NCBI GenBank assembly: GCA_964475215.1
Contig: CAYYVT010000187.1
Span: 72,334 to 136,333 of the forward strand
Source of the DNA: an uncultured Nitrososphaerales archaeon
GTDB taxonomy: Archaea > Thermoproteota > Nitrososphaeria > Conexivisphaerales > DTJL01
Reading direction: 5' to 3'
Length of the DNA stretch: 64,000 nucleotides
Shown here: piece by piece, positions 3,093 through 59,561 of the stretch
Numbering within the stretch: position 1 is the stretch's first letter
Layout: each line of letters opens with the position of its first letter
Notes under the pieces: generated by a model
What the model was told of the DNA's origin: nothing
Database searches by the model: none
The model's input: the letters and a program-made list of their open reading frames with translations, nothing else
Program-made: the position numbers and the translations under genes

Positions 3093-4985
3093 TTGGCTAC
3101 CGAGAAGGAAGACGCCCTAATTCCATTCCTTCGTGGCGGAGGAGGGCCAACCGCCGACGAAAACGAGGAATATGCCCGAGTTTACTTGGAGGTACGTGGC
3201 CCCGGGAAACTCTTTTCGTCTGGGCCTTCAAAGGGAGTAGAGAGCATTAAGCGTGAGTTATATCCGTTCTACGTCGTACCCGTCCCCAACCGCGGAGGCC
3301 ATTGGATTATAGACGCCACAAAACCTATCGCCATTTCAGCCTTTGATAGCTTCGATCCAACCCTTCTGGTCGCACAGCTTGGCTACCTCGTCAGTAGGAG
3401 GAGAACTAACTTGGACTTTGCAGGAGAATCTAGCCAAACAATGTTCGAACACATGTCTGGAGCGCTACTAGATTACGCCAGACTTCAAAACGATTACAAT
3501 CGAGACCTGTCCTCGGCAATCAGCAGAGATTTCCTTGCCAAAGACTACATAGTCATGGTTGAAGCCGCAAAACAGGTGGTTGGGAGTTGCCGTGCGACCA
3601 TGCGTTACGGAATCAGAATCTCCGAGAAGATCACCCCGACGTTCACCTGGAACGAAGCCTTCGAATCTTCGGCATCGATTGAAAGACGCGTCAGCTTCAT
3701 CGTGGACCACCTACACAGATGTGGAGAATCGGTGGGATTGCTCGAAGCCAGGGTCGCAGAATTCGAGGACCATGTCAGGCGCTCCAAAGCAGCACTGGAG
3801 ACGGAGTTCGAAGATCTTAAGGTCCTCAAGGGAAGGGAAGAGGCCGACGCTACCGAAAGACGCGAAGCCGAGGGACAGAAGGCAGACAAGAACTACAAAC
3901 ATCTGATTAGCAAAGCGGAGAAACAACTCAAGGTATTCAAAGAAGCGAGCGAGGCAACCCAACTAGAGCTGATGCCCGTCCAGAGCGTCTACGACGACAT
4001 GCACCAAGCGGCATCGAAACTTGATGAGATGATGGTAGGGGCCAAGTCGGCCCACGATGAGGCGGTTCAGAAGGAGGCCGAGTTCAGGGCTAAGTACACC
4101 AAGCTTCAAGAGGACCAATCGAACCTTCAAGCTCGCTCAACGAAGGGAAAGGATTCAAATTCCTTCCCTGAAGACGCTCCTCTCGACGCCGAGATGGCGT
4201 ACCTCGAACACCAAGCTAACGACTACCAGAGTAGGCAGAAGCAGCTGGAAGAGGAACTGCAGCGGCTGTCCGCCGACCGGACGAAGTGTAGCTCAGAGAT
4301 GGAGAAGTTCGAAAAGACATACCGGCCCATGAAGGCGAAGGCAGATGAAGCAAAGGCCTCCCTAGATAGGTGTGTAGAGGAGCTGGAAACGCTCAATCGG
4401 CAGAAGAATGCAGAGCTACTCGCCTCCGAGGAGCGATATCAAGGAGAAATAAAACGAATCAAATCCGAGACAGAAGAGGCCAAAGGCGTGCTCGAACACA
4501 GGACCTCATCCCTTGATCAATCCTTGGAGGGGCTAGAATCTTCCCTGACTAGCCTTAAGGCGACCCTAGTCTCCGCTGGAAAATATGCCGACGAAGTCAT
4601 GCTGCCCGGCCTTGAAACGATAACCATCTCTGGCGAAGACATGTCGCGCGAGTTATACTACCCCTTTTACTTGGGCACAAGGCAAGATTCACCATCGCCA
4701 TCGCTCGTCGTTGGCCGCGAATGGATGGAGACCCAAGATAGCTCGGCTGGGACTCGAGAAGAACATTCATACAGACAGACGGCGATTGACTCATACGTCC
4801 AAAGCAGACTATCGTCAATTCAATGCAATAACTCCGCCGACGACTTCAACCTGTTCGCCCAGATTGAATTCAAAGGGCGCCTCCTTGTAGGGCTGAAGGA
4901 ATTGGCCGTCAAAGGGCTGATCGACGAAAGCAAGATGCTGAAGCTTGCCAAAGAGATAGCTGTCATCGACCTCAAACTCCCTTGA
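3093..4985 (+). CDS. Hypothetical 630-aa protein with a long central E/K/Q-rich coiled coil
   Basis: TTG start preceded by an AT-rich stretch (aacaataataaac...ctattatac). About 260 residues are heptad-like charged sequence between two globular ends. I recognised no catalytic motif. Confidence 0.7.
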   Translation: MATEKEDALIPFLRGGGGPTADENEEYARVYLEVRGPGKLFSSGPSKGVESIKRELYPFYVVPVPNRGGHWIIDATKPIAISAFDSFDPTLLVAQLGYLVSRRRTNLDFAGESSQTMFEHMSGALLDYARLQNDYNRDLSSAISRDFLAKDYIVMVEAAKQVVGSCRATMRYGIRISEKITPTFTWNEAFESSASIERRVSFIVDHLHRCGESVGLLEARVAEFEDHVRRSKAALETEFEDLKVLKGREEADATERREAEGQKADKNYKHLISKAEKQLKVFKEASEATQLELMPVQSVYDDMHQAASKLDEMMVGAKSAHDEAVQKEAEFRAKYTKLQEDQSNLQARSTKGKDSNSFPEDAPLDAEMAYLEHQANDYQSRQKQLEEELQRLSADRTKCSSEMEKFEKTYRPMKAKADEAKASLDRCVEELETLNRQKNAELLASEERYQGEIKRIKSETEEAKGVLEHRTSSLDQSLEGLESSLTSLKATLVSAGKYADEVMLPGLETITISGEDMSRELYYPFYLGTRQDSPSPSLVVGREWMETQDSSAGTREEHSYRQTAIDSYVQSRLSSIQCNNSADDFNLFAQIEFKGRLLVGLKELAVKGLIDESKMLKLAKEIAVIDLKLP

Positions 4986-5370: not shown

Positions 5371-8178
5371 CTACTGCGTGATTTCTACGTAAAACAGCTG
5401 AATTACTCCAGCACCTCCGGATTCAAGCGCACCTATGTAATAATTCTGAGAACTGTCTTCCCATACATAAATCGTTGATCCGATGCTGCTATGGCCGTAG
5501 GTAGTAAGGAAGGAGTTCACTTGGCTGAGGGTTGCATTCAGGCCCAGTCCCGAGAACGAAAGTACTCCTTGGCTTATCCAAACGGTTGGATTCATCGTGG
5601 TCACATTCAGAAACGAGTATCCCTCGGATGCCACCAGCGAGGCCACGTCGGACAGCAACGTGTGTATGTCGGCTGCTGGCTCTACAGTAGCGACTCCCGC
5701 CAAGCCGTAGTATGCGGTAGCCGCGTCAGCGCCTAAGCTAACGTTGCCTGTAGTGGGATTAATAGCCGTGATAAATGGAAGCTGCGTCACTACACCGCTC
5801 GCTCCAGGGTTGGTGTATACGGCCACAAAATAAGTGAGCTGCCCTCCTATCGAATAAAGGAGGTACGACCCAATCCTATAGTTGGGCAGAAGTGTGAGCT
5901 GAGTTCTCACTTGCCCGCTGGTCTGCAGGGCCTGCTCAGCAGCAGTAGGTCCTATGAAAGTCGTCGATGGGGACGGGTTCACATAAGCCTCGATTTGGCC
6001 TAACCTCGTGCCGCCGTACGCTACGTACATCGCCGCCAAGTTCCCACTTTCAGAATTCTCATATTCTACCAACTGTATTCCGACAAAGTAAGTCTGGTTC
6101 CCAATGGCCCACGGGATGTACTGGACAGACGTGTCATTAGGCCTTTCGTAGAACTGTGTCCCGGACCGCCAAACGAATGGGTCGGTCACATGAAAGACAA
6201 AATTGTAATCGAGCTGACCAGCGCTGGTCGGAGAGCCCAGGAGTTGCTCCGGGTACCTGAGCTGGGGGATGAGCCAGGATGGAGGCGCTCCCCACGTAGG
6301 GTAATAGTTTTGATAGAACTGGGTAAGGAAATCCGTGCTATTGCTGCCGATGAGGTTGGACACGGTATATCCCTGCATGGATCCGTCCGCGACGTTGACC
6401 AGCACGACTCCGAAGAATCTCAGGTACGGGCTCGCCGCAAAGCCCGACTGAAGCGGATAGTCGATGTAGACTTGTACCGCGTAATAGATGTTGGTACCAT
6501 CAGTGACAAGATATGCCGATGGGTCCTCCACGAGGCCCGGGATTAAGATGCTTTGGACCCGGTTGAAAACATCCCTGTTGAAGAGCATATCGATTGATTG
6601 ATATTGGGGTGAAAACGCGAAGCCCAACTGGCCCTCTGAGAAGGTCATCCACAAGGCCTTTTGCCATCCAGTCAGGACATAATCAGGCTGACCCTGGTAA
6701 GAGACATTCTGGACTTCGTCATACCCAGGGACGTGAACATAGACGCTCTGCAAGAACCCTCCAGCCGCTCCATTGAGTGGCTCCTCTCCATAGTAGATAG
6801 GAGGCTCCGTCGACACGCTGAAGGCCTGCTCTGTGGAGACCTGCTGGCCGGTGTAGGTGTTTATCACCATTATTTGCGAGCTGTGTGTATAAATCAGGTG
6901 CTCGCTGATCCAGTCGGTCGAAGGATAGAGCGGCGAGGTCGGGGCCACCCAATACTCCGTGTTGTTCAAGAACACTATTTGCGAACTAGCCAAGGTCATC
7001 CAATTGTACGCCCCAATCTCTTTAGTCATAGTCGTCGCGGCGGCGGTCTGGTCCCACTGTCGAACCAAGCTAAGTGTTGTGGTGGCGTTGCTGGTTGGCA
7101 GGCTGAGAAGGGATTCCTGCTGTACATTCCCCGTACCTGAGGCCCAGTCAGTTACAGTTATCTCCTTCTGCGTCTGGGGATCCCACTCATAACTGATGTA
7201 GCTATTATTCCAGTTCAAGTAGAGGAAGACCACCGCACCAACATTGATTACAAGGCCTATAGCTACCAACACAGCCAGACCCTTGAACAGGGTTCTCCTC
7301 GAGCTGGGTGTCTCGAAAACCCTCCTGCTGGTAGTCTTAAGGTACGCCCAGCCGACGGCGGCAGCTGCCAATATCGTCCATAGCGCGCCGTAGACGTACG
7401 GTGTACTGACGTTCATCAGCCAATAAGGCGCGCCCAAGACGGCCGATAGGACGATGACACCTATGAACACCAAGGCGTTACGCAGCCATATGTCACTAGT
7501 TCTAGTCCCCAAGTTGGCCAGAAGTCGCAGAATCATGCGAATGGCAACGATTGAAAGGACAGCCCAGGCAACGATATACAGTACTCGATACTGAATCTCC
7601 ATCGCAGGCATCAACGAAACAAGTTCAGTTCCAGAAGCAGGGAAGAGGGGTAGCATGAAGATGCGCAGCACCTTCGACCAATCACCCATCCCCATAGACA
7701 GCATCATTATGGGGTTCATCACATTACCCAAGAACATGAGCCCTCCCGTAAGCGCAAAATAGGCAAAACCAGCGGACCACTTGATGACCTGCCAAAGGAA
7801 CCACATCCACTTTCCTGGCCTCGGTAGCCTCATAGGCTCGTAAGCGGGAGCCTCCCCCTCATACTCTCTAGGCCTCCTGACCATCAGGGAACCCCTCAAA
7901 AAGGTGCCCACTAGCCTCCACAAGTCGCTATGTCCAACTACCGGGTTGATCAGTAGTAGGGAGAACAGCGCGGCGGCGATGAAGGTGTAATTATGATAGA
8001 AGACAATCTGGAACCAGTCGAGACCGGCTTTCAGCGAGTACATATGCTGGAATATCGACCATACGAGGTACGTCCAAGCAGCGAATAACACCACCACTAC
8101 AGCGATAAGCCCTATGAGCAACCAGGCGAGTAACGGACCCCGGCCAAACCTGCCAGGCCCACGTATCTCATCCTGCAT
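5371..8178 (-). CDS. Large integral membrane protein, UPF0182 (COG1615)-like
   Basis: 935 aa. The N-terminal ~330 aa contain about 7-8 TM helices, followed by ~600 aa of a Y/T/S/N-rich, probably extracytoplasmic region. The motif LRYPEQLL resembles the RYPEDLF motif I recall from UPF0182. The AglB motif WWDYG is absent. Confidence 0.55.
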   Translation of the reverse strand: MQDEIRGPGRFGRGPLLAWLLIGLIAVVVVLFAAWTYLVWSIFQHMYSLKAGLDWFQIVFYHNYTFIAAALFSLLLINPVVGHSDLWRLVGTFLRGSLMVRRPREYEGEAPAYEPMRLPRPGKWMWFLWQVIKWSAGFAYFALTGGLMFLGNVMNPIMMLSMGMGDWSKVLRIFMLPLFPASGTELVSLMPAMEIQYRVLYIVAWAVLSIVAIRMILRLLANLGTRTSDIWLRNALVFIGVIVLSAVLGAPYWLMNVSTPYVYGALWTILAAAAVGWAYLKTTSRRVFETPSSRRTLFKGLAVLVAIGLVINVGAVVFLYLNWNNSYISYEWDPQTQKEITVTDWASGTGNVQQESLLSLPTSNATTTLSLVRQWDQTAAATTMTKEIGAYNWMTLASSQIVFLNNTEYWVAPTSPLYPSTDWISEHLIYTHSSQIMVINTYTGQQVSTEQAFSVSTEPPIYYGEEPLNGAAGGFLQSVYVHVPGYDEVQNVSYQGQPDYVLTGWQKALWMTFSEGQLGFAFSPQYQSIDMLFNRDVFNRVQSILIPGLVEDPSAYLVTDGTNIYYAVQVYIDYPLQSGFAASPYLRFFGVVLVNVADGSMQGYTVSNLIGSNSTDFLTQFYQNYYPTWGAPPSWLIPQLRYPEQLLGSPTSAGQLDYNFVFHVTDPFVWRSGTQFYERPNDTSVQYIPWAIGNQTYFVGIQLVEYENSESGNLAAMYVAYGGTRLGQIEAYVNPSPSTTFIGPTAAEQALQTSGQVRTQLTLLPNYRIGSYLLYSIGGQLTYFVAVYTNPGASGVVTQLPFITAINPTTGNVSLGADAATAYYGLAGVATVEPAADIHTLLSDVASLVASEGYSFLNVTTMNPTVWISQGVLSFSGLGLNATLSQVNSFLTTYGHSSIGSTIYVWEDSSQNYYIGALESGGAGVIQLFYVEITQ

Positions 8179-47559: not shown

Positions 47560-47912
47560 CAATGACCTCCGGTACGTCTGGGAGTGAGGATGTTTCCTGG
47601 CCATAGCCCTCCTTCTGTTCTAGGCGGGATTCAGCTGAGAGGTCTACCCGGGCTTACAGCAGTGAGCCTGTCATCAGCCCCATTTGACCTTGCTCCACGC
47701 GGGGTGGCCGTTTCATCCCTCATCCAGGACCTTCTCCGGCATTCCTGCCTTCATCGCGTTCCTGGCGCGGGTGTCGTTTCTGTTCCAGAGCCAGCGGTCT
47801 CCCGCTGCGTTTCTCAACGCCGCGTCTCCTGCACGGAGGGAGGAGCTTCCTCAGGGCTGTTCGCCCCGAACCTGCCCACCAGCTCACATCCTCGGGCTAG
47901 CTCCGCCGGTTC
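47560..47912 (-). ncRNA. rnpB: RNase P RNA (archaeal type A-like)
   Basis: The minus strand reads ...CUGAGGAAGCUCC (CR-I-like)...GGAACAGAAACGAC...GAGGGAUGAAACGGCCACCCC...GGAGCAAGGUCAAAUGGGG...GUAAGCCCGGGUA...AGCUGAAU (CR-IV)...AACAGAAGGAGGGCUAUGG (CR-V). The terminal helix GAGGAUGU/ACAUCCUC closes the molecule. TATA-like tttaatgtttaaat lies just upstream on the minus strand. The ends are approximate (about +/-10 nt). Confidence 0.85.
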
Positions 47913-47926
47913 CCACGATTTAAACA

Positions 47927-48487
47927 TTAAACGAGGCCTATTTCCTGCATGAACATCCTTTGGGCCTCCACCACCTGGGCGCTCGATTCGGCCTCCCCAT
48001 AGGCTTCGAGGTATCTCCTGTTAAGCTCGAAAAAAGAGTGCCCCCACCTAAACGAGCTCATAATCTCCTCAGCCTGCTCCCGAAGACCGATGATGAACAA
48101 AGCCGATGCCAGAGCTTCGGCGGTGGAGAGGTTCACCGGTATCCCATAGTTAGTCGGATTCGCTGCCACAAGGTACGGGAGAGCCCTGCGGCGGTCACCC
48201 CTCCAGCTCGCTCCCCTGAAGGACTCGAGCGCCTTCTTCCAGCTGGCGTCGATGGCGGTCAGCCCCTGTGAAAGCACAATCTCGCTGTCCGATCGGGATA
48301 TGGACCTACTGCAATACGGGTCGAGGAGGAGGCCGCGCCTGCTGTGTAGTGGAAGATATTCGACCATGCCCAGCCGCTTGAGCTTGGAAGCAGTGCACTT
48401 GGTCGGATCGTCCTGTCGCAGATGGAGCACGAACAGTTTAACGCTTGCCACCCTCTCATTGTTCAATTTTTTCTGCGTTTCTCCCAA
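47927..48487 (-). CDS. tsr3: 16S rRNA aminocarboxypropyltransferase Tsr3 (DUF367)
   Basis: 186 aa. KLFVLHLRQDDPTKCTASKL and IDASWKKA...YLVAANPTNYG match the Tsr3 pattern. Confidence 0.85.
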   Translation of the reverse strand: MGETQKKLNNERVASVKLFVLHLRQDDPTKCTASKLKRLGMVEYLPLHSRRGLLLDPYCSRSISRSDSEIVLSQGLTAIDASWKKALESFRGASWRGDRRRALPYLVAANPTNYGIPVNLSTAEALASALFIIGLREQAEEIMSSFRWGHSFFELNRRYLEAYGEAESSAQVVEAQRMFMQEIGLV

Positions 48488-50048: not shown

Positions 50049-51356
50049 GTGGTTTTACCCTCCGTGCAGAGCCTCCCCCTTCTCCATATCGGGATCGACG
50101 ACACCGACTCCTCCGAGGGGATGTGCACGACCTACCTTGCGGCGGTGCTGATGGACGAGATAGAGGAGAGGCATGGATTGCAACTAGACGGCTTCCCAAG
50201 GCTCATCCGCTTAAACCCTAACTGCCCCTACAAAACGAGGGGCAACGCGGCCCTCTCCTTTCGGCTCCGAATCCCTCCCGAAGTCATCCCCATCATCCAG
50301 GAGCTTGTCCTGAAGAGGGTGGAAGAGATGGCCATGCTGGAGGACGAAGGGACGGAATCCGGTGTGGCCTTCTACGTCGGCGAAGAAGTGCCCGTCCTCC
50401 TGGGGGAGTTCTCATCCCGTGTCGTAAAGGAGATGGTCACCATGGAGGAGGCCGAAGAGGTAGCAGATGCTCTCCACATCGAACTCCACAAGTTCAAGTT
50501 CGGACGGGGTATCATAGGCGCCCTAGCTGCCATCGGTAATAGGCTCGAGTATGGGAGGACCTACGAGCTCATCGCCTATCGCACCCCCAAATTCATCGGG
50601 ACTCGAAGAGAGATGGAAAGGGGATCCGTCGAGGCCATGAACGAGGCGACATATCCCTTCACGTTCGACAACCTAGACGCGAACACCGGCGAAGTTAGAA
50701 TCATGCCGCACACCCCCTGCCCGGTTTACTTTGGCATCAGGGCATTCAAACCGGAGTATCTGGAGCGCGCCTATGGAATGGTCAGACCCCTCCAGCCCGT
50801 CGAGCGCTTTCGGATTTACGAAACGAACCAAGGCACCGATGCTCACATCTCGGACGCCGTCGCGGGGAAGGTAAGGCCCCTGACCTCAGTCAAGGTGTGC
50901 GGCACCGTCTGCTCGGCACCCAGGACTATCAGGGGCGGCCATGTGATATTCAGGATCGAGGACGGCAGTGGCTCTGTCGACTGCGCCATTTACGAGCCCA
51001 CCCGGGGCTTTCGGAACGTGGGAAAGGCTCTGGTCCAGGGGGACGTTGTAAGGGTCTACGGTGGTGCGAAGGAGAAGCCCGGTTCCCGACTTACCATCAA
51101 CGTCGAGAAGATGGAGGTGCTCTCCCTGGTTCCGTTGACCATGAAGAAGAACCCCGCCTGTCCGAAGTGTGGTAAGACGATGAAGTCGGAGGGAAGGGGG
51201 AAGGGGTATCAGTGCCCTGCCTGCAAGTTCAAATCGACAGAGCCCGAGCAGCAGAAGATCACGGTCGAAAGGGATGTGTCGGTAGGCCTCTACGCTGCCC
51301 CACCCCGTGCCCGCCGCCACCTGAGCAAGCCGACCACGGCGCCCTACGAAGTCTAG
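50049..51356 (+). CDS. tiaS: tRNA(Ile2) 2-agmatinylcytidine synthetase TiaS
   Basis: 435 aa with a GTG start. The N-terminus HIGIDDTDSSEGMCTTYL is present, followed by an OB-like region and a C-terminal zinc ribbon (CPKCG...CPACK). Confidence 0.88.
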   Translation: MVLPSVQSLPLLHIGIDDTDSSEGMCTTYLAAVLMDEIEERHGLQLDGFPRLIRLNPNCPYKTRGNAALSFRLRIPPEVIPIIQELVLKRVEEMAMLEDEGTESGVAFYVGEEVPVLLGEFSSRVVKEMVTMEEAEEVADALHIELHKFKFGRGIIGALAAIGNRLEYGRTYELIAYRTPKFIGTRREMERGSVEAMNEATYPFTFDNLDANTGEVRIMPHTPCPVYFGIRAFKPEYLERAYGMVRPLQPVERFRIYETNQGTDAHISDAVAGKVRPLTSVKVCGTVCSAPRTIRGGHVIFRIEDGSGSVDCAIYEPTRGFRNVGKALVQGDVVRVYGGAKEKPGSRLTINVEKMEVLSLVPLTMKKNPACPKCGKTMKSEGRGKGYQCPACKFKSTEPEQQKITVERDVSVGLYAAPPRARRHLSKPTTAPYEV

Positions 51357-51373
51357 AATTCGGCACACAAACC

Positions 51374-51380
51374 TTTAATA
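51374..51380 (+). promoter_or_regulatory. TATA-like box upstream of tRNA(CAU)
   Basis: tttaata is centred about 37 nt upstream of tRNA position 1. It is the only AT-rich block in the 57-nt spacer after tiaS. Confidence 0.45.
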
Positions 51381-51413
51381 CAGAACTGGCGACAAGCCCA
51401 GACGGACTTTCGT

Positions 51414-51508
51414 AGCGGGGTGGGGAAGCCAGGCCTATCCCGGCGGGCTCATAAGATGGTGTCATCTGAGGGACCCGCAGATCGGACGTCCAAATCGTCC
51501 CCCCGCTA
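51414..51508 (+). tRNA. tRNA-Met(CAU) with initiator hallmarks and a 19-nt canonical intron
   Basis: Hand-folded cloverleaf:
- Acceptor stem AGCGGGG/CCCCGCU, giving an A1:U72 pair.
- D arm GGGA-AGCCAGGCCUA-UCCC.
- Anticodon stem GCGGG/CCCGC, giving three G:C pairs at 29-31:39-41.
- Anticodon loop CUCAUAA, with the anticodon at 51450-52.
- Variable loop AGAUC.
- T arm GGACG-UCCAAAU-CGUCC.
- Discriminator A.
The mature length is 76 nt and no CCA is encoded. Confidence 0.9.
51454..51472 (+). other. tRNA intron at the canonical 37/38 position with a bulge-helix-bulge motif
   Basis: A central 4-bp helix CUCA(51448-51)/UGAG(51467-70) is flanked by 3-nt bulges, UAA (51452-54) and GGA (51471-73), on opposite strands. 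An outer hairpin GAUG-GUGU-CAUC completes the motif. Together these form a textbook hBHBh' substrate for the archaeal splicing endonuclease. Confidence 0.85.
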
Positions 51509-51616
51509 CTTCAACCATGACGCACTGTGTAGTGTACTTCAATCATCCAAATGTTCCGCTATGCTCTCCGTCGCCGCGTTCCTCTGGCTTCACTTCTGCA
51601 TTTGCGGAATCATTTG

Positions 51617-59411: not shown

Positions 59412-59486
59412 GGGGCCGTGGGCTAGCTTGGTCACGCTACCAGCCTCGGGCGCTGGTGATCGGCGGTTCAAATCCGCCCGGCCCCA
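59412..59486 (+). tRNA. tRNA-Pro(CGG)
   Basis: Hand-folded cloverleaf:
- Acceptor stem GGGGCCG/CGGCCCC.
- D arm GGCU-AGCUUGGUCA-CGCU.
- Anticodon stem CCAGC/GCUGG with loop CUCGGGC.
- Variable loop UGAUC.
- T arm GGCGG-UUCAAAU-CCGCC.
- Discriminator A.
A T-run (ggttttt) follows about 40 nt downstream. Confidence 0.92.
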
Positions 59487-59561
59487 CCTACATTCAAGGT
59501 GGCCTACCGGTGGTAAAGGTTTTTAGACCCAGCCATAGCAAGTGATGTCAATAGTGGTTCT

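Follow-up and report, generated by a model that had tools for sequence, protein, structure and literature searches.

An intron-containing initiator-type tRNA(CAU) gene downstream of archaeal tiaS with C in place of U at position 55

The tRNA(CAU) gene that lies directly downstream of tiaS in the window (the whole stretch of DNA analysed, 64 kb) carries a C at position 55 of its T loop. This is the only noteworthy departure of the gene, its initiator identity, its canonical intron and its synteny with tiaS being ordinary, and what is broken by it is a general rule for tRNAs and not a rule specific for initiators. C55 is recurrent, clustered in certain lineages and not strictly confined to initiators. 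The explanation that we regard as quite probable joins four elements: the gene encodes a functional initiator, its intron is spliced, the order with tiaS is inherited, and C55 is a genuine and heritable variant that is tolerated. This explanation builds on the observed structure of the gene, its orthology, the covariation of its stems, the conservation of its promoter and the recurrence of C55.

Gene structure, intron and initiator identity

The features of the locus, all on the forward strand, are the following.

50049–51356, forward strand: tiaS, the gene for tRNA(Ile2) agmatidine synthase (435 amino acids, GTG start; assigned by Pfam)
51364–51381, forward strand: promoter-like box CACACAAACCTTTAATAC with the TATA-like TTTAATA at 51374–51380 (conserved in relatives)
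51414–51508, forward strand: initiator-type tRNA(CAU) gene including its intron (ARAGORN with intron search; covariation in 18 distinct homologues)
51414–51453, forward strand: 5′ exon, positions 1–37, with the anticodon CAT at 51450–51452 (direct reading and ARAGORN; junctions match intron-less orthologues)
51454–51472, forward strand: 19-nt intron at the canonical position 37/38 with hBHBh′ motif (ARAGORN, fold evaluation)
51473–51508, forward strand: 3′ exon, positions 38–73 (direct reading, ARAGORN, intron-less orthologues)
51489–51495, forward strand: T loop TCCAAAT with C55 at 51490 (direct reading and the ARAGORN structure)

The gene reads AGCGGGG-TG-GGGA-AGCCAGGCCTA-TCCC-G-GCGGG-CTCATA/agatggtgtcatctgaggg/A-CCCGC-AGATC-GGACG-TCCAAAT-CGTCC-CCCCGCT-A, where the slashes enclose the intron. 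The acceptor stem AGCGGGG/CCCCGCT gives an A1:U72 pair, in which the A at 51414 pairs with the T at 51507, and is followed by the discriminator A73 (51508); CCA is not encoded. The anticodon stem GCGGG/CCCGC contains the pairs G29-C41, G30-C40 and G31-C39, and after removal of the intron the CAU anticodon is found in a loop of the standard 7 nt, CUCAUAA. GGACG-TCCAAAT-CGTCC forms the T arm. The initial annotation had pointed out the A1:U72 pair, the three G:C pairs 29–31:39–41 and the T loop UCCAAAU with C at position 55, and all of these are read directly in the sequence.

Finding the gene depends on allowing for the intron. With intron search, ARAGORN predicts a tRNA-Met(CAT) at 51414–51509 that contains the 19-nt intron AGATGGTGTCATCTGAGGG; without intron search it does not call the tRNA(CAU) of the window. 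The Rfam tRNA model never reported it, neither in the whole window at the gathering threshold and at E ≤ 1 nor in the segment 51300–51620 alone. Both default ARAGORN and the Rfam model miss the gene because of the intron, which breaks the model, and therefore the intron-less orthologue L001 (positions 7361–7436; loci in other genomes are given by such L numbers) was scored instead. It reached 55.6 bits against RF00005, for which the threshold is 29, so that a copy with C55 is accepted by the model. The E-value scan of the whole window with Rfam revealed no other intron-split tRNA, for example an Ile2 species. Since neither ARAGORN in its default mode nor the tRNA model of Rfam sees the gene, genomes of this kind may appear in annotation pipelines to have no initiator. 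The window also contains a tRNA-Pro(CGG) gene at 59412–59488 with a normal TTCAAAT loop.

The intron is located between A37 and A38, one nucleotide 3′ of the anticodon. In the evaluated fold a CUCA/UGAG helix of 4 bp is flanked by the 3-nt bulges UA/a and gg/A, which hold the splice sites (slashes), and an outer helix is formed by GAUG/CAUC. The energy of this hBHBh′ fold is −39.6 kcal/mol and that of the minimum free energy structure −44.3, the latter showing the same extended arm in another register, and the minimum free energy structure of the L002 pre-tRNA has the same 3-4-3 geometry. The 19-nt intron with a textbook bulge-helix-bulge motif at 37/38, as described in the initial annotation, is confirmed in its geometry. 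Among relatives the length of the intron at 37/38 is 0 in L001, L005, L007, L050 and others, 14 nt in L054, L063 and L067, 16 nt in L002, L056 and L059, and 19 nt in the window and in L003/L004, where the introns are clearly homologous. The mature tRNAs of L001, which has no intron, and of L003, which has one of 19 nt, are identical. Once the intron is taken out, what remains is exactly the sequence of intron-less orthologues, which gives indirect support to excision by the splicing endonuclease. Gain and loss among relatives is a known pattern for canonical archaeal introns (PMC4090602). With its 37/38 site, its two 3-nt bulges and 4-bp helix, its outer helices on both sides and its variable presence among relatives, the window intron resembles canonical archaeal bulge-helix-bulge introns without material difference, and by its sequence and predicted fold it appears to be an ordinary member of this class that comes and goes among relatives. 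With 19 nt it is too short for a guide RNA.

What kind of tRNA(CAU) does the gene encode? For this question 18 distinct archaeal orthologues or analogues were aligned after removal of the introns and scored against the cloverleaf. All 360 pair cells (20 pairs in 18 sequences) are occupied by standard pairs, 9 of the 20 pairs are changed on both sides, and covariation is found for four of the five T-stem pairs, at pairing values of 42–57% in the shifted-register controls. The A1:U72 pair is invariant (18/18), as are the three G:C pairs (columns 32–34/42–44). Moreover, the window gene shares its slot with the canonical U55 initiator-type genes of its relatives. A1:U72 and the three G:C pairs in the anticodon stem are features of archaeal initiators (PMC6412873), and in tRNAscan-SE 2.0 the A1:U72 pair separates eukaryotic iMet from elongator Met (PMC8450103). 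The hallmark positions and the orthology thus support the assignment of the window gene as an initiator tRNA. It is like archaeal tRNAiMet in the CAU anticodon, A1:U72, G29-C41, G30-C40 and G31-C39, A73, a T loop ending in AAAU and a full cloverleaf, but unlike it in having C55 instead of U55 and no encoded CCA. Position R11:Y24 was dropped as discriminator, since the tRNA-Pro of the window also has G11.

The tiaS neighbourhood and the promoter box

The TiaS protein matches all four of the Pfam families TiaS_TCKD, TiaS_FLD, OB fold and TiaS zinc ribbon above the curated cut-offs, the TiaS_TCKD match spanning only profile positions 2–59 of 156. Its homologues carry the name tRNA(Ile2)-agmatinylcytidine synthase. 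Conexivisphaerales is the closest source with a name among them, and by these homologues the window belongs to a Conexivisphaerales-like (Nitrososphaerota) lineage. A gap of 57 nt separates the tiaS stop (51356) from the start of the tRNA (51414), both genes being on the same strand; this distance, the orientation and the TATA-like box are all present as initially annotated. Among 24 ORFs of the window inspected with Pfam, which make up part of the 64 kb, no pseudouridine synthase, deaminase or other tRNA enzyme except TiaS was found.

Is the neighbourhood of tiaS and the tRNA gene of functional relevance, as the initial annotation had asked? DNA was fetched from the surroundings of genes for TiaS proteins with 100, 81, 79, 78, 71 and 68% identity to that of the window. 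An initiator-type tRNA(CAU) gene is located about 60 nt 3′ of tiaS on the same strand in L001–L005 and L007–L010. In L006 an insertion sequence with a DDE transposase ORF is found between tiaS and the tRNA gene, the tRNA and its promoter being undamaged, and L005 encodes the same TiaS protein as L006 and has no insertion sequence. When metagenomes were scanned for exact matches to the 5′ half of the tRNA, 19 more contigs were found, in which tiaS is located directly upstream wherever the flank suffices, down to a TiaS identity of about 48–54% (JGI contigs), indicating that the adjacency is old within the Conexivisphaerales-like clade. Outside this clade, three Hadarchaeales-type tiaS loci have argS beside tiaS and no CAU tRNA nearby, and none of the Micrarchaeota tRNA loci examined is accompanied by tiaS.

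The promoter-like box ends about 33 nt upstream of the mature tRNA 5′ end. The 18-nt motif CCACAAA(A/C)CTTTAATAC is found at a fixed distance in L001, L002, L003, L005, L006, L007 and L056, and in L006 it has stayed with the tRNA although the insertion sequence separates it from tiaS. The fixed distance and the retention with the tRNA in L006 suggest that the box is a BRE/TATA promoter belonging to the tRNA itself and that the linkage with tiaS would be inherited synteny. With respect to the question of a functional linkage, the adjacency itself is conserved in the clade, but the insertion sequence in L006 and the loci of Hadarchaeales and Micrarchaeota make it look like plain synteny and probably not like the pairing of an enzyme gene with the gene of its substrate.

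Position 55 in the clade and across species

The elbow residues U54, C56, G18 and G19 are present in the window tRNA, and it is at position 55 that the U54-U55-C56 rule is broken. The C55 loop TCCAAAT is common to the window, L010, L001 (identical to L014) and L003/L004 (identical to L021). L010 is an independent ENA assembly with an identical C55 tRNA, and altogether the assemblies with C55, taken from ENA, NCBI and Logan, represent different samples. C55 occurs in three related species, whose T stems, GGACG/CGTCC and GGTGG/CCACC, are two compensatory pairs apart; with C55 kept beside such compensatory T-stem differences, error and decay are excluded as its origin. The mature tRNA of L003, and likewise L001, differs from the U55 tRNA of L050, L051 and L064 at position 55 only, and comparison of L003 with L050 revealed no change that would compensate for C55 at G18, G19, A57/A58 or elsewhere. 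U55 was found in all 19 metagenome matches and in all more distant relatives. In a neighbour-joining tree of TiaS, constructed without support values, the C55 species are interleaved with the U55 group L002, L056 and L059, indicating at least two changes at position 55.

For a wider view, one genome per species from 185,579 species was scanned for an initiator-type anticodon arm combined with a TCCRAAT loop and U72-A73. As this pattern covers C55 only and leaves U55 initiators uncounted, the resulting counts give no frequency; the window's own genome is not among the species representatives matched. The scan returned 39 loci, which after inspection with ARAGORN correspond to 23 archaeal and about 11 bacterial genomes with a C55 initiator-type tRNA; four matches were false, the tRNAs having TTCAAAT according to ARAGORN. 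The genomes with a C55 initiator-type tRNA are distributed as follows.

Candidatus Micrarchaeota: 19 genomes
Labelled Marsarchaeota: 1 genome
Methanosarcinales: 1 genome (a MAG)
Nitrososphaerota/Conexivisphaerales: 2 genomes, already met in the TiaS look-ups
Bacteria of diverse phyla (1x72 mismatch type): about 11 genomes

In the Micrarchaeota C55 genes at least five different T stems surround the invariant TCCAAAT, and three of these genes contain introns. Non-initiator tRNAs beside the C55 loci mostly have U55, with C55 in a tRNA-Gly of L016, a tRNA-Lys of L022 and a tRNA-Gly of L025. In addition, a tRNA-Pro with C55 was seen in L005, but only in a single Logan assembly, that of a Conexivisphaerales relative. 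Look-ups through the neighbouring AAA_17 protein gave other species, all with U55, and since the C55 tRNA-Pro rests on a single assembly it is given no weight. A literature search for exceptions to U55 in archaeal or initiator tRNAs returned C55 of the Desulfitobacterium tRNA-Pyl only, and no paper describing C55 in archaeal or bacterial initiators was found in it.

Competing explanations and the meaning of C55

How is the deviation at position 55 to be explained? An error of sequencing or assembly is practically negligible as an explanation of C55: it would account for a single-base difference from the U55 orthologues, but the base recurs in the window, L010, L001/L014 and L003/L004/L021, in ENA, NCBI and Logan assemblies from different samples. 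It is also quite improbable that the window holds an additional copy that is a variant or in decay, and that a canonical U55 initiator encoded elsewhere in the genome serves in its place. In favour of this reading, position 55 deviates from a near-universal residue, and the window copy has no encoded CCA, which is encoded in most relatives. However, the gene occupies the orthologous slot and is the sole initiator-type gene at the locus in every relative examined, and L001 and L003 differ from their U55 orthologue L050 at nothing but position 55. Decay of the copy was rejected since the cloverleaf is 100% paired (20/20 pairs intact, with compensatory changes, 9 of the pairs being changed on both sides), the promoter box is conserved and C55 is kept in three species. 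A very improbable reading, finally, is that of a tRNA-Ile2 or a dual-use CAU tRNA that is agmatinylated by TiaS, the adjacent genes forming an enzyme-substrate pair. A tRNA-Ile2(CAU), the substrate of TiaS, would have the CAU anticodon in the gene, here 57 nt 3′ of tiaS on the same strand, and tiaS as a neighbour would make sense for it, the more so as the adjacency is conserved over a deep divergence of TiaS, down to about 48% identity. In contrast to tRNA-Ile2, however, the window tRNA has A1:U72 and three G:C pairs, initiator hallmarks that are invariant, and Ile2 identity was rejected on account of this acceptor end, which is not of elongator type, and of the initiator-type anticodon stem. 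Moreover, a tRNA with agmatidine at C34 bears an antideterminant for MetRS and is blocked in reading AUG (PMC9976931), which is incompatible with an initiator, so that an initiator cannot be a substrate of TiaS. The linkage is also confined to this clade, being absent from Hadarchaeales-type and Micrarchaeota loci, and the insertion sequence splits the pair in L006. Of the three readings that the initial annotation had left open, the initiator thus stands, with hallmarks invariant in 18/18 sequences and an orthologous slot, and the Ile2 species and the variant copy find no support.

A different kind of explanation concerns not the gene but its product. C55 could be a genomic spelling only, a cytidine deaminase making U55, which then might be converted to pseudouridine, so that the mature initiator would be canonical. 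There is a precedent for such a process, as in Methanopyrus kandleri the enzyme CDAT8 edits C8 of tRNAs to U8, C8 being near-global in this organism. The situation at position 55 is like the CDAT8 system in that a C is encoded where a structurally essential U is near-universal in archaeal tRNAs, but unlike it in that C55 is found in a minority of tRNAs, only a few being affected. Editing would be in line with the alternation of U and C at position 55 among close relatives, in tRNAs that are otherwise unchanged, and with the occurrence of C55 in a few tRNAs other than initiators in the C55 lineages (the Gly, Lys and Gly tRNAs of L016, L022 and L025 and the Pro tRNA of L005). In addition, among modified nucleotides of tRNAs, U55 or pseudouridine 55 is described as showing the most universal conservation, and U55 stacks on U54 and pairs with G18 in the tRNA elbow (PMC7912444). 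On the other hand, no candidate for a deaminase is present among the scanned ORFs, which cover part of one 64-kb window, and the very small genomes of Micrarchaeota would make a dedicated editing enzyme less likely. Altogether, editing appears rather unlikely. Toggling between C and U at position 55 without any other change fits tolerance as well as editing.

The preferred explanation, a functional initiator with a tolerated C55, entails a series of steps which, like the chemical fate of C55, we infer. The tRNA would be transcribed from its own BRE/TATA-type promoter about 35 nt upstream, and RNase P together with a 3′ nuclease would trim the transcript, whereupon CCA would be added post-transcriptionally, because the gene encodes none. 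The archaeal splicing endonuclease would remove the intron by cutting in both 3-nt bulges of the bulge-helix-bulge motif, and the halves would be ligated. MetRS would then charge the mature tRNA of 76 nt through its CAU anticodon, aIF2 would bind it by way of A1:U72, and the three G:C pairs would hold it in the P site. TiaS would not act on this tRNA, and co-expression with tiaS would not be expected. Most likely C55 stays C in the mature tRNA and is tolerated by the lineage; if C stays C, pseudouridine 55 cannot be made, and the elbow contact between G18 and position 55 would be altered. An initiator, reaching the P site together with aIF2 and not by way of the A site, may tolerate C55 more readily.

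Eukaryotic initiators provide a partial parallel, as they have A54 (PMC7912444). Similar to the deviations A54 and A60 in the T loop of eukaryotic initiators, C55 is a deviation of an initiator from the consensus of elongators at a position that is conserved otherwise. Unlike these, the deviation of the window tRNA is at position 55 and is found in scattered lineages and not domain-wide; C55 is not known to serve the discrimination between initiator and elongator, and it also occurs in a few elongators of the same lineages.

The far-reaching proposition that the C55 lineages, namely the Conexivisphaerales-like clade, many Micrarchaeota and the Methanosarcinales MAG, which are unrelated to one another, either run a new C55-to-U55 editing activity or translate with a C55 elbow devoid of pseudouridine is put forward only tentatively, and we consider it unlikely. 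Pseudouridine 55 and the contact that it makes with G18 count as textbook invariants of the elbow (PMC7912444). In at least 23 genomes of archaeal species, however, an essential tRNA of single-copy type has C55, with compensatory evolution around it, so that the invariant is breakable in nature. The matched natural pair of L003 with C55 and L050 with U55 could show what U55 or pseudouridine 55 contributes to folding, to recognition by Pus10 or Cbf5 and to initiation. If the C55 elbow is indeed free of pseudouridine, these natural tRNAs would offer a ready test of what the 'universal' pseudouridine 55 does.

Genes around tiaS and the initiator tRNA

On the upstream side of tiaS in the window lies a pair of features, the RNase P RNA being at a distance of about 2.2 kb from tiaS:
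47592-47887 (-), archaeal RNase P RNA (Rfam RF00373, 183.6 bits, full length)
about 47927-48487 (-), Tsr3-like gene (Ribo_biogen_C)

The Tsr3-like gene stands directly upstream of the RNase P RNA, which is its downstream neighbor. Within this short stretch, tiaS and the initiator tRNA therefore share their surroundings with RNase P RNA and a gene for rRNA modification. Elsewhere in the window, the two long ORFs 3093-4985 (+; 630 aa) and 5371-8178 (-; 935 aa) had no Pfam match at E≤1e-5.

In one relative an insert of about 1.1 kb with a DDE_Tnp_1 transposase ORF separates tiaS from the initiator tRNA (L006:7314-8457), and this insert has damaged neither the tRNA nor its promoter box. A second assembly, L005, lacks the insert, though both encode an identical TiaS. 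The 3′ CCA is not encoded in the initiator tRNAs of the window (51508-51511) and of the relative L001 (7436-7440), where the gene ends in GCTA and the next bases are CTT or TTT; GCTACCA is encoded in most relatives, C55 and U55 alike.

In Hadarchaeales-type genomes (L069-L073) the arginyl-tRNA synthetase gene divergently adjoins tiaS. This pairing is curious because agmatine is made from arginine.

A second tRNA(CAU) in a distant lineage

Three loci of a lineage with TiaS identity of about 50% contain a second tRNA(CAU), some 3.8 kb from tiaS:
L055:4741-4858 (-), second tRNA(CAU)
L058:1186-1303, second tRNA(CAU)
L062:3572-3686, second tRNA(CAU)

These tRNAs are of the elongator type (GCCGGGG...CCCCGGCA), probably elongator Met, and appear to be interrupted by introns at two places, within the anticodon stem close to 30/31 and again after position 43.

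C55 in bacterial initiator-type tRNAs and in archaeal elongator tRNAs

Initiator-type tRNAs with C55 were also found in bacteria, namely in Anaerolineae, Actinomycetota, Spirochaetaceae, Cytophagia, Dehalococcoidia and Bacilli (L011, L013, L027, L029, L030, L033, L037, L039, L040, L044, L045). They have the three G:C pairs, a mismatched 1×72 with U72, and a T loop reading TCCGAAT or TCCAAAT; as the scan pattern demanded U72, this sample comprises no bacterial initiators with the usual A72.

Among elongators, a tRNA-Pro(CGG) with C55 (L005:12433-12510; T arm GGCGG-TCCAAAT-CCGCC) was observed in one Logan assembly only. Its orthologs carry U55, both in the window and in L007, L009, L054, L057, L063, L066 and L067, and likewise in L074/75, L080-82 and L085/86.

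In Micrarchaeota, three elongators with C55 are encoded beside C55 initiators:
L016:6911-6999 (-), tRNA-Gly(CCC)
L022:2898-2972, tRNA-Lys(CTT)
L025:1314-1386 (-), tRNA-Gly(CCC)

About two dozen other tRNAs neighboring the C55 initiators of Micrarchaeota have U55. The occurrence of C55 in some elongators of Micrarchaeota suggests that position 55 has loosened across the whole lineage.
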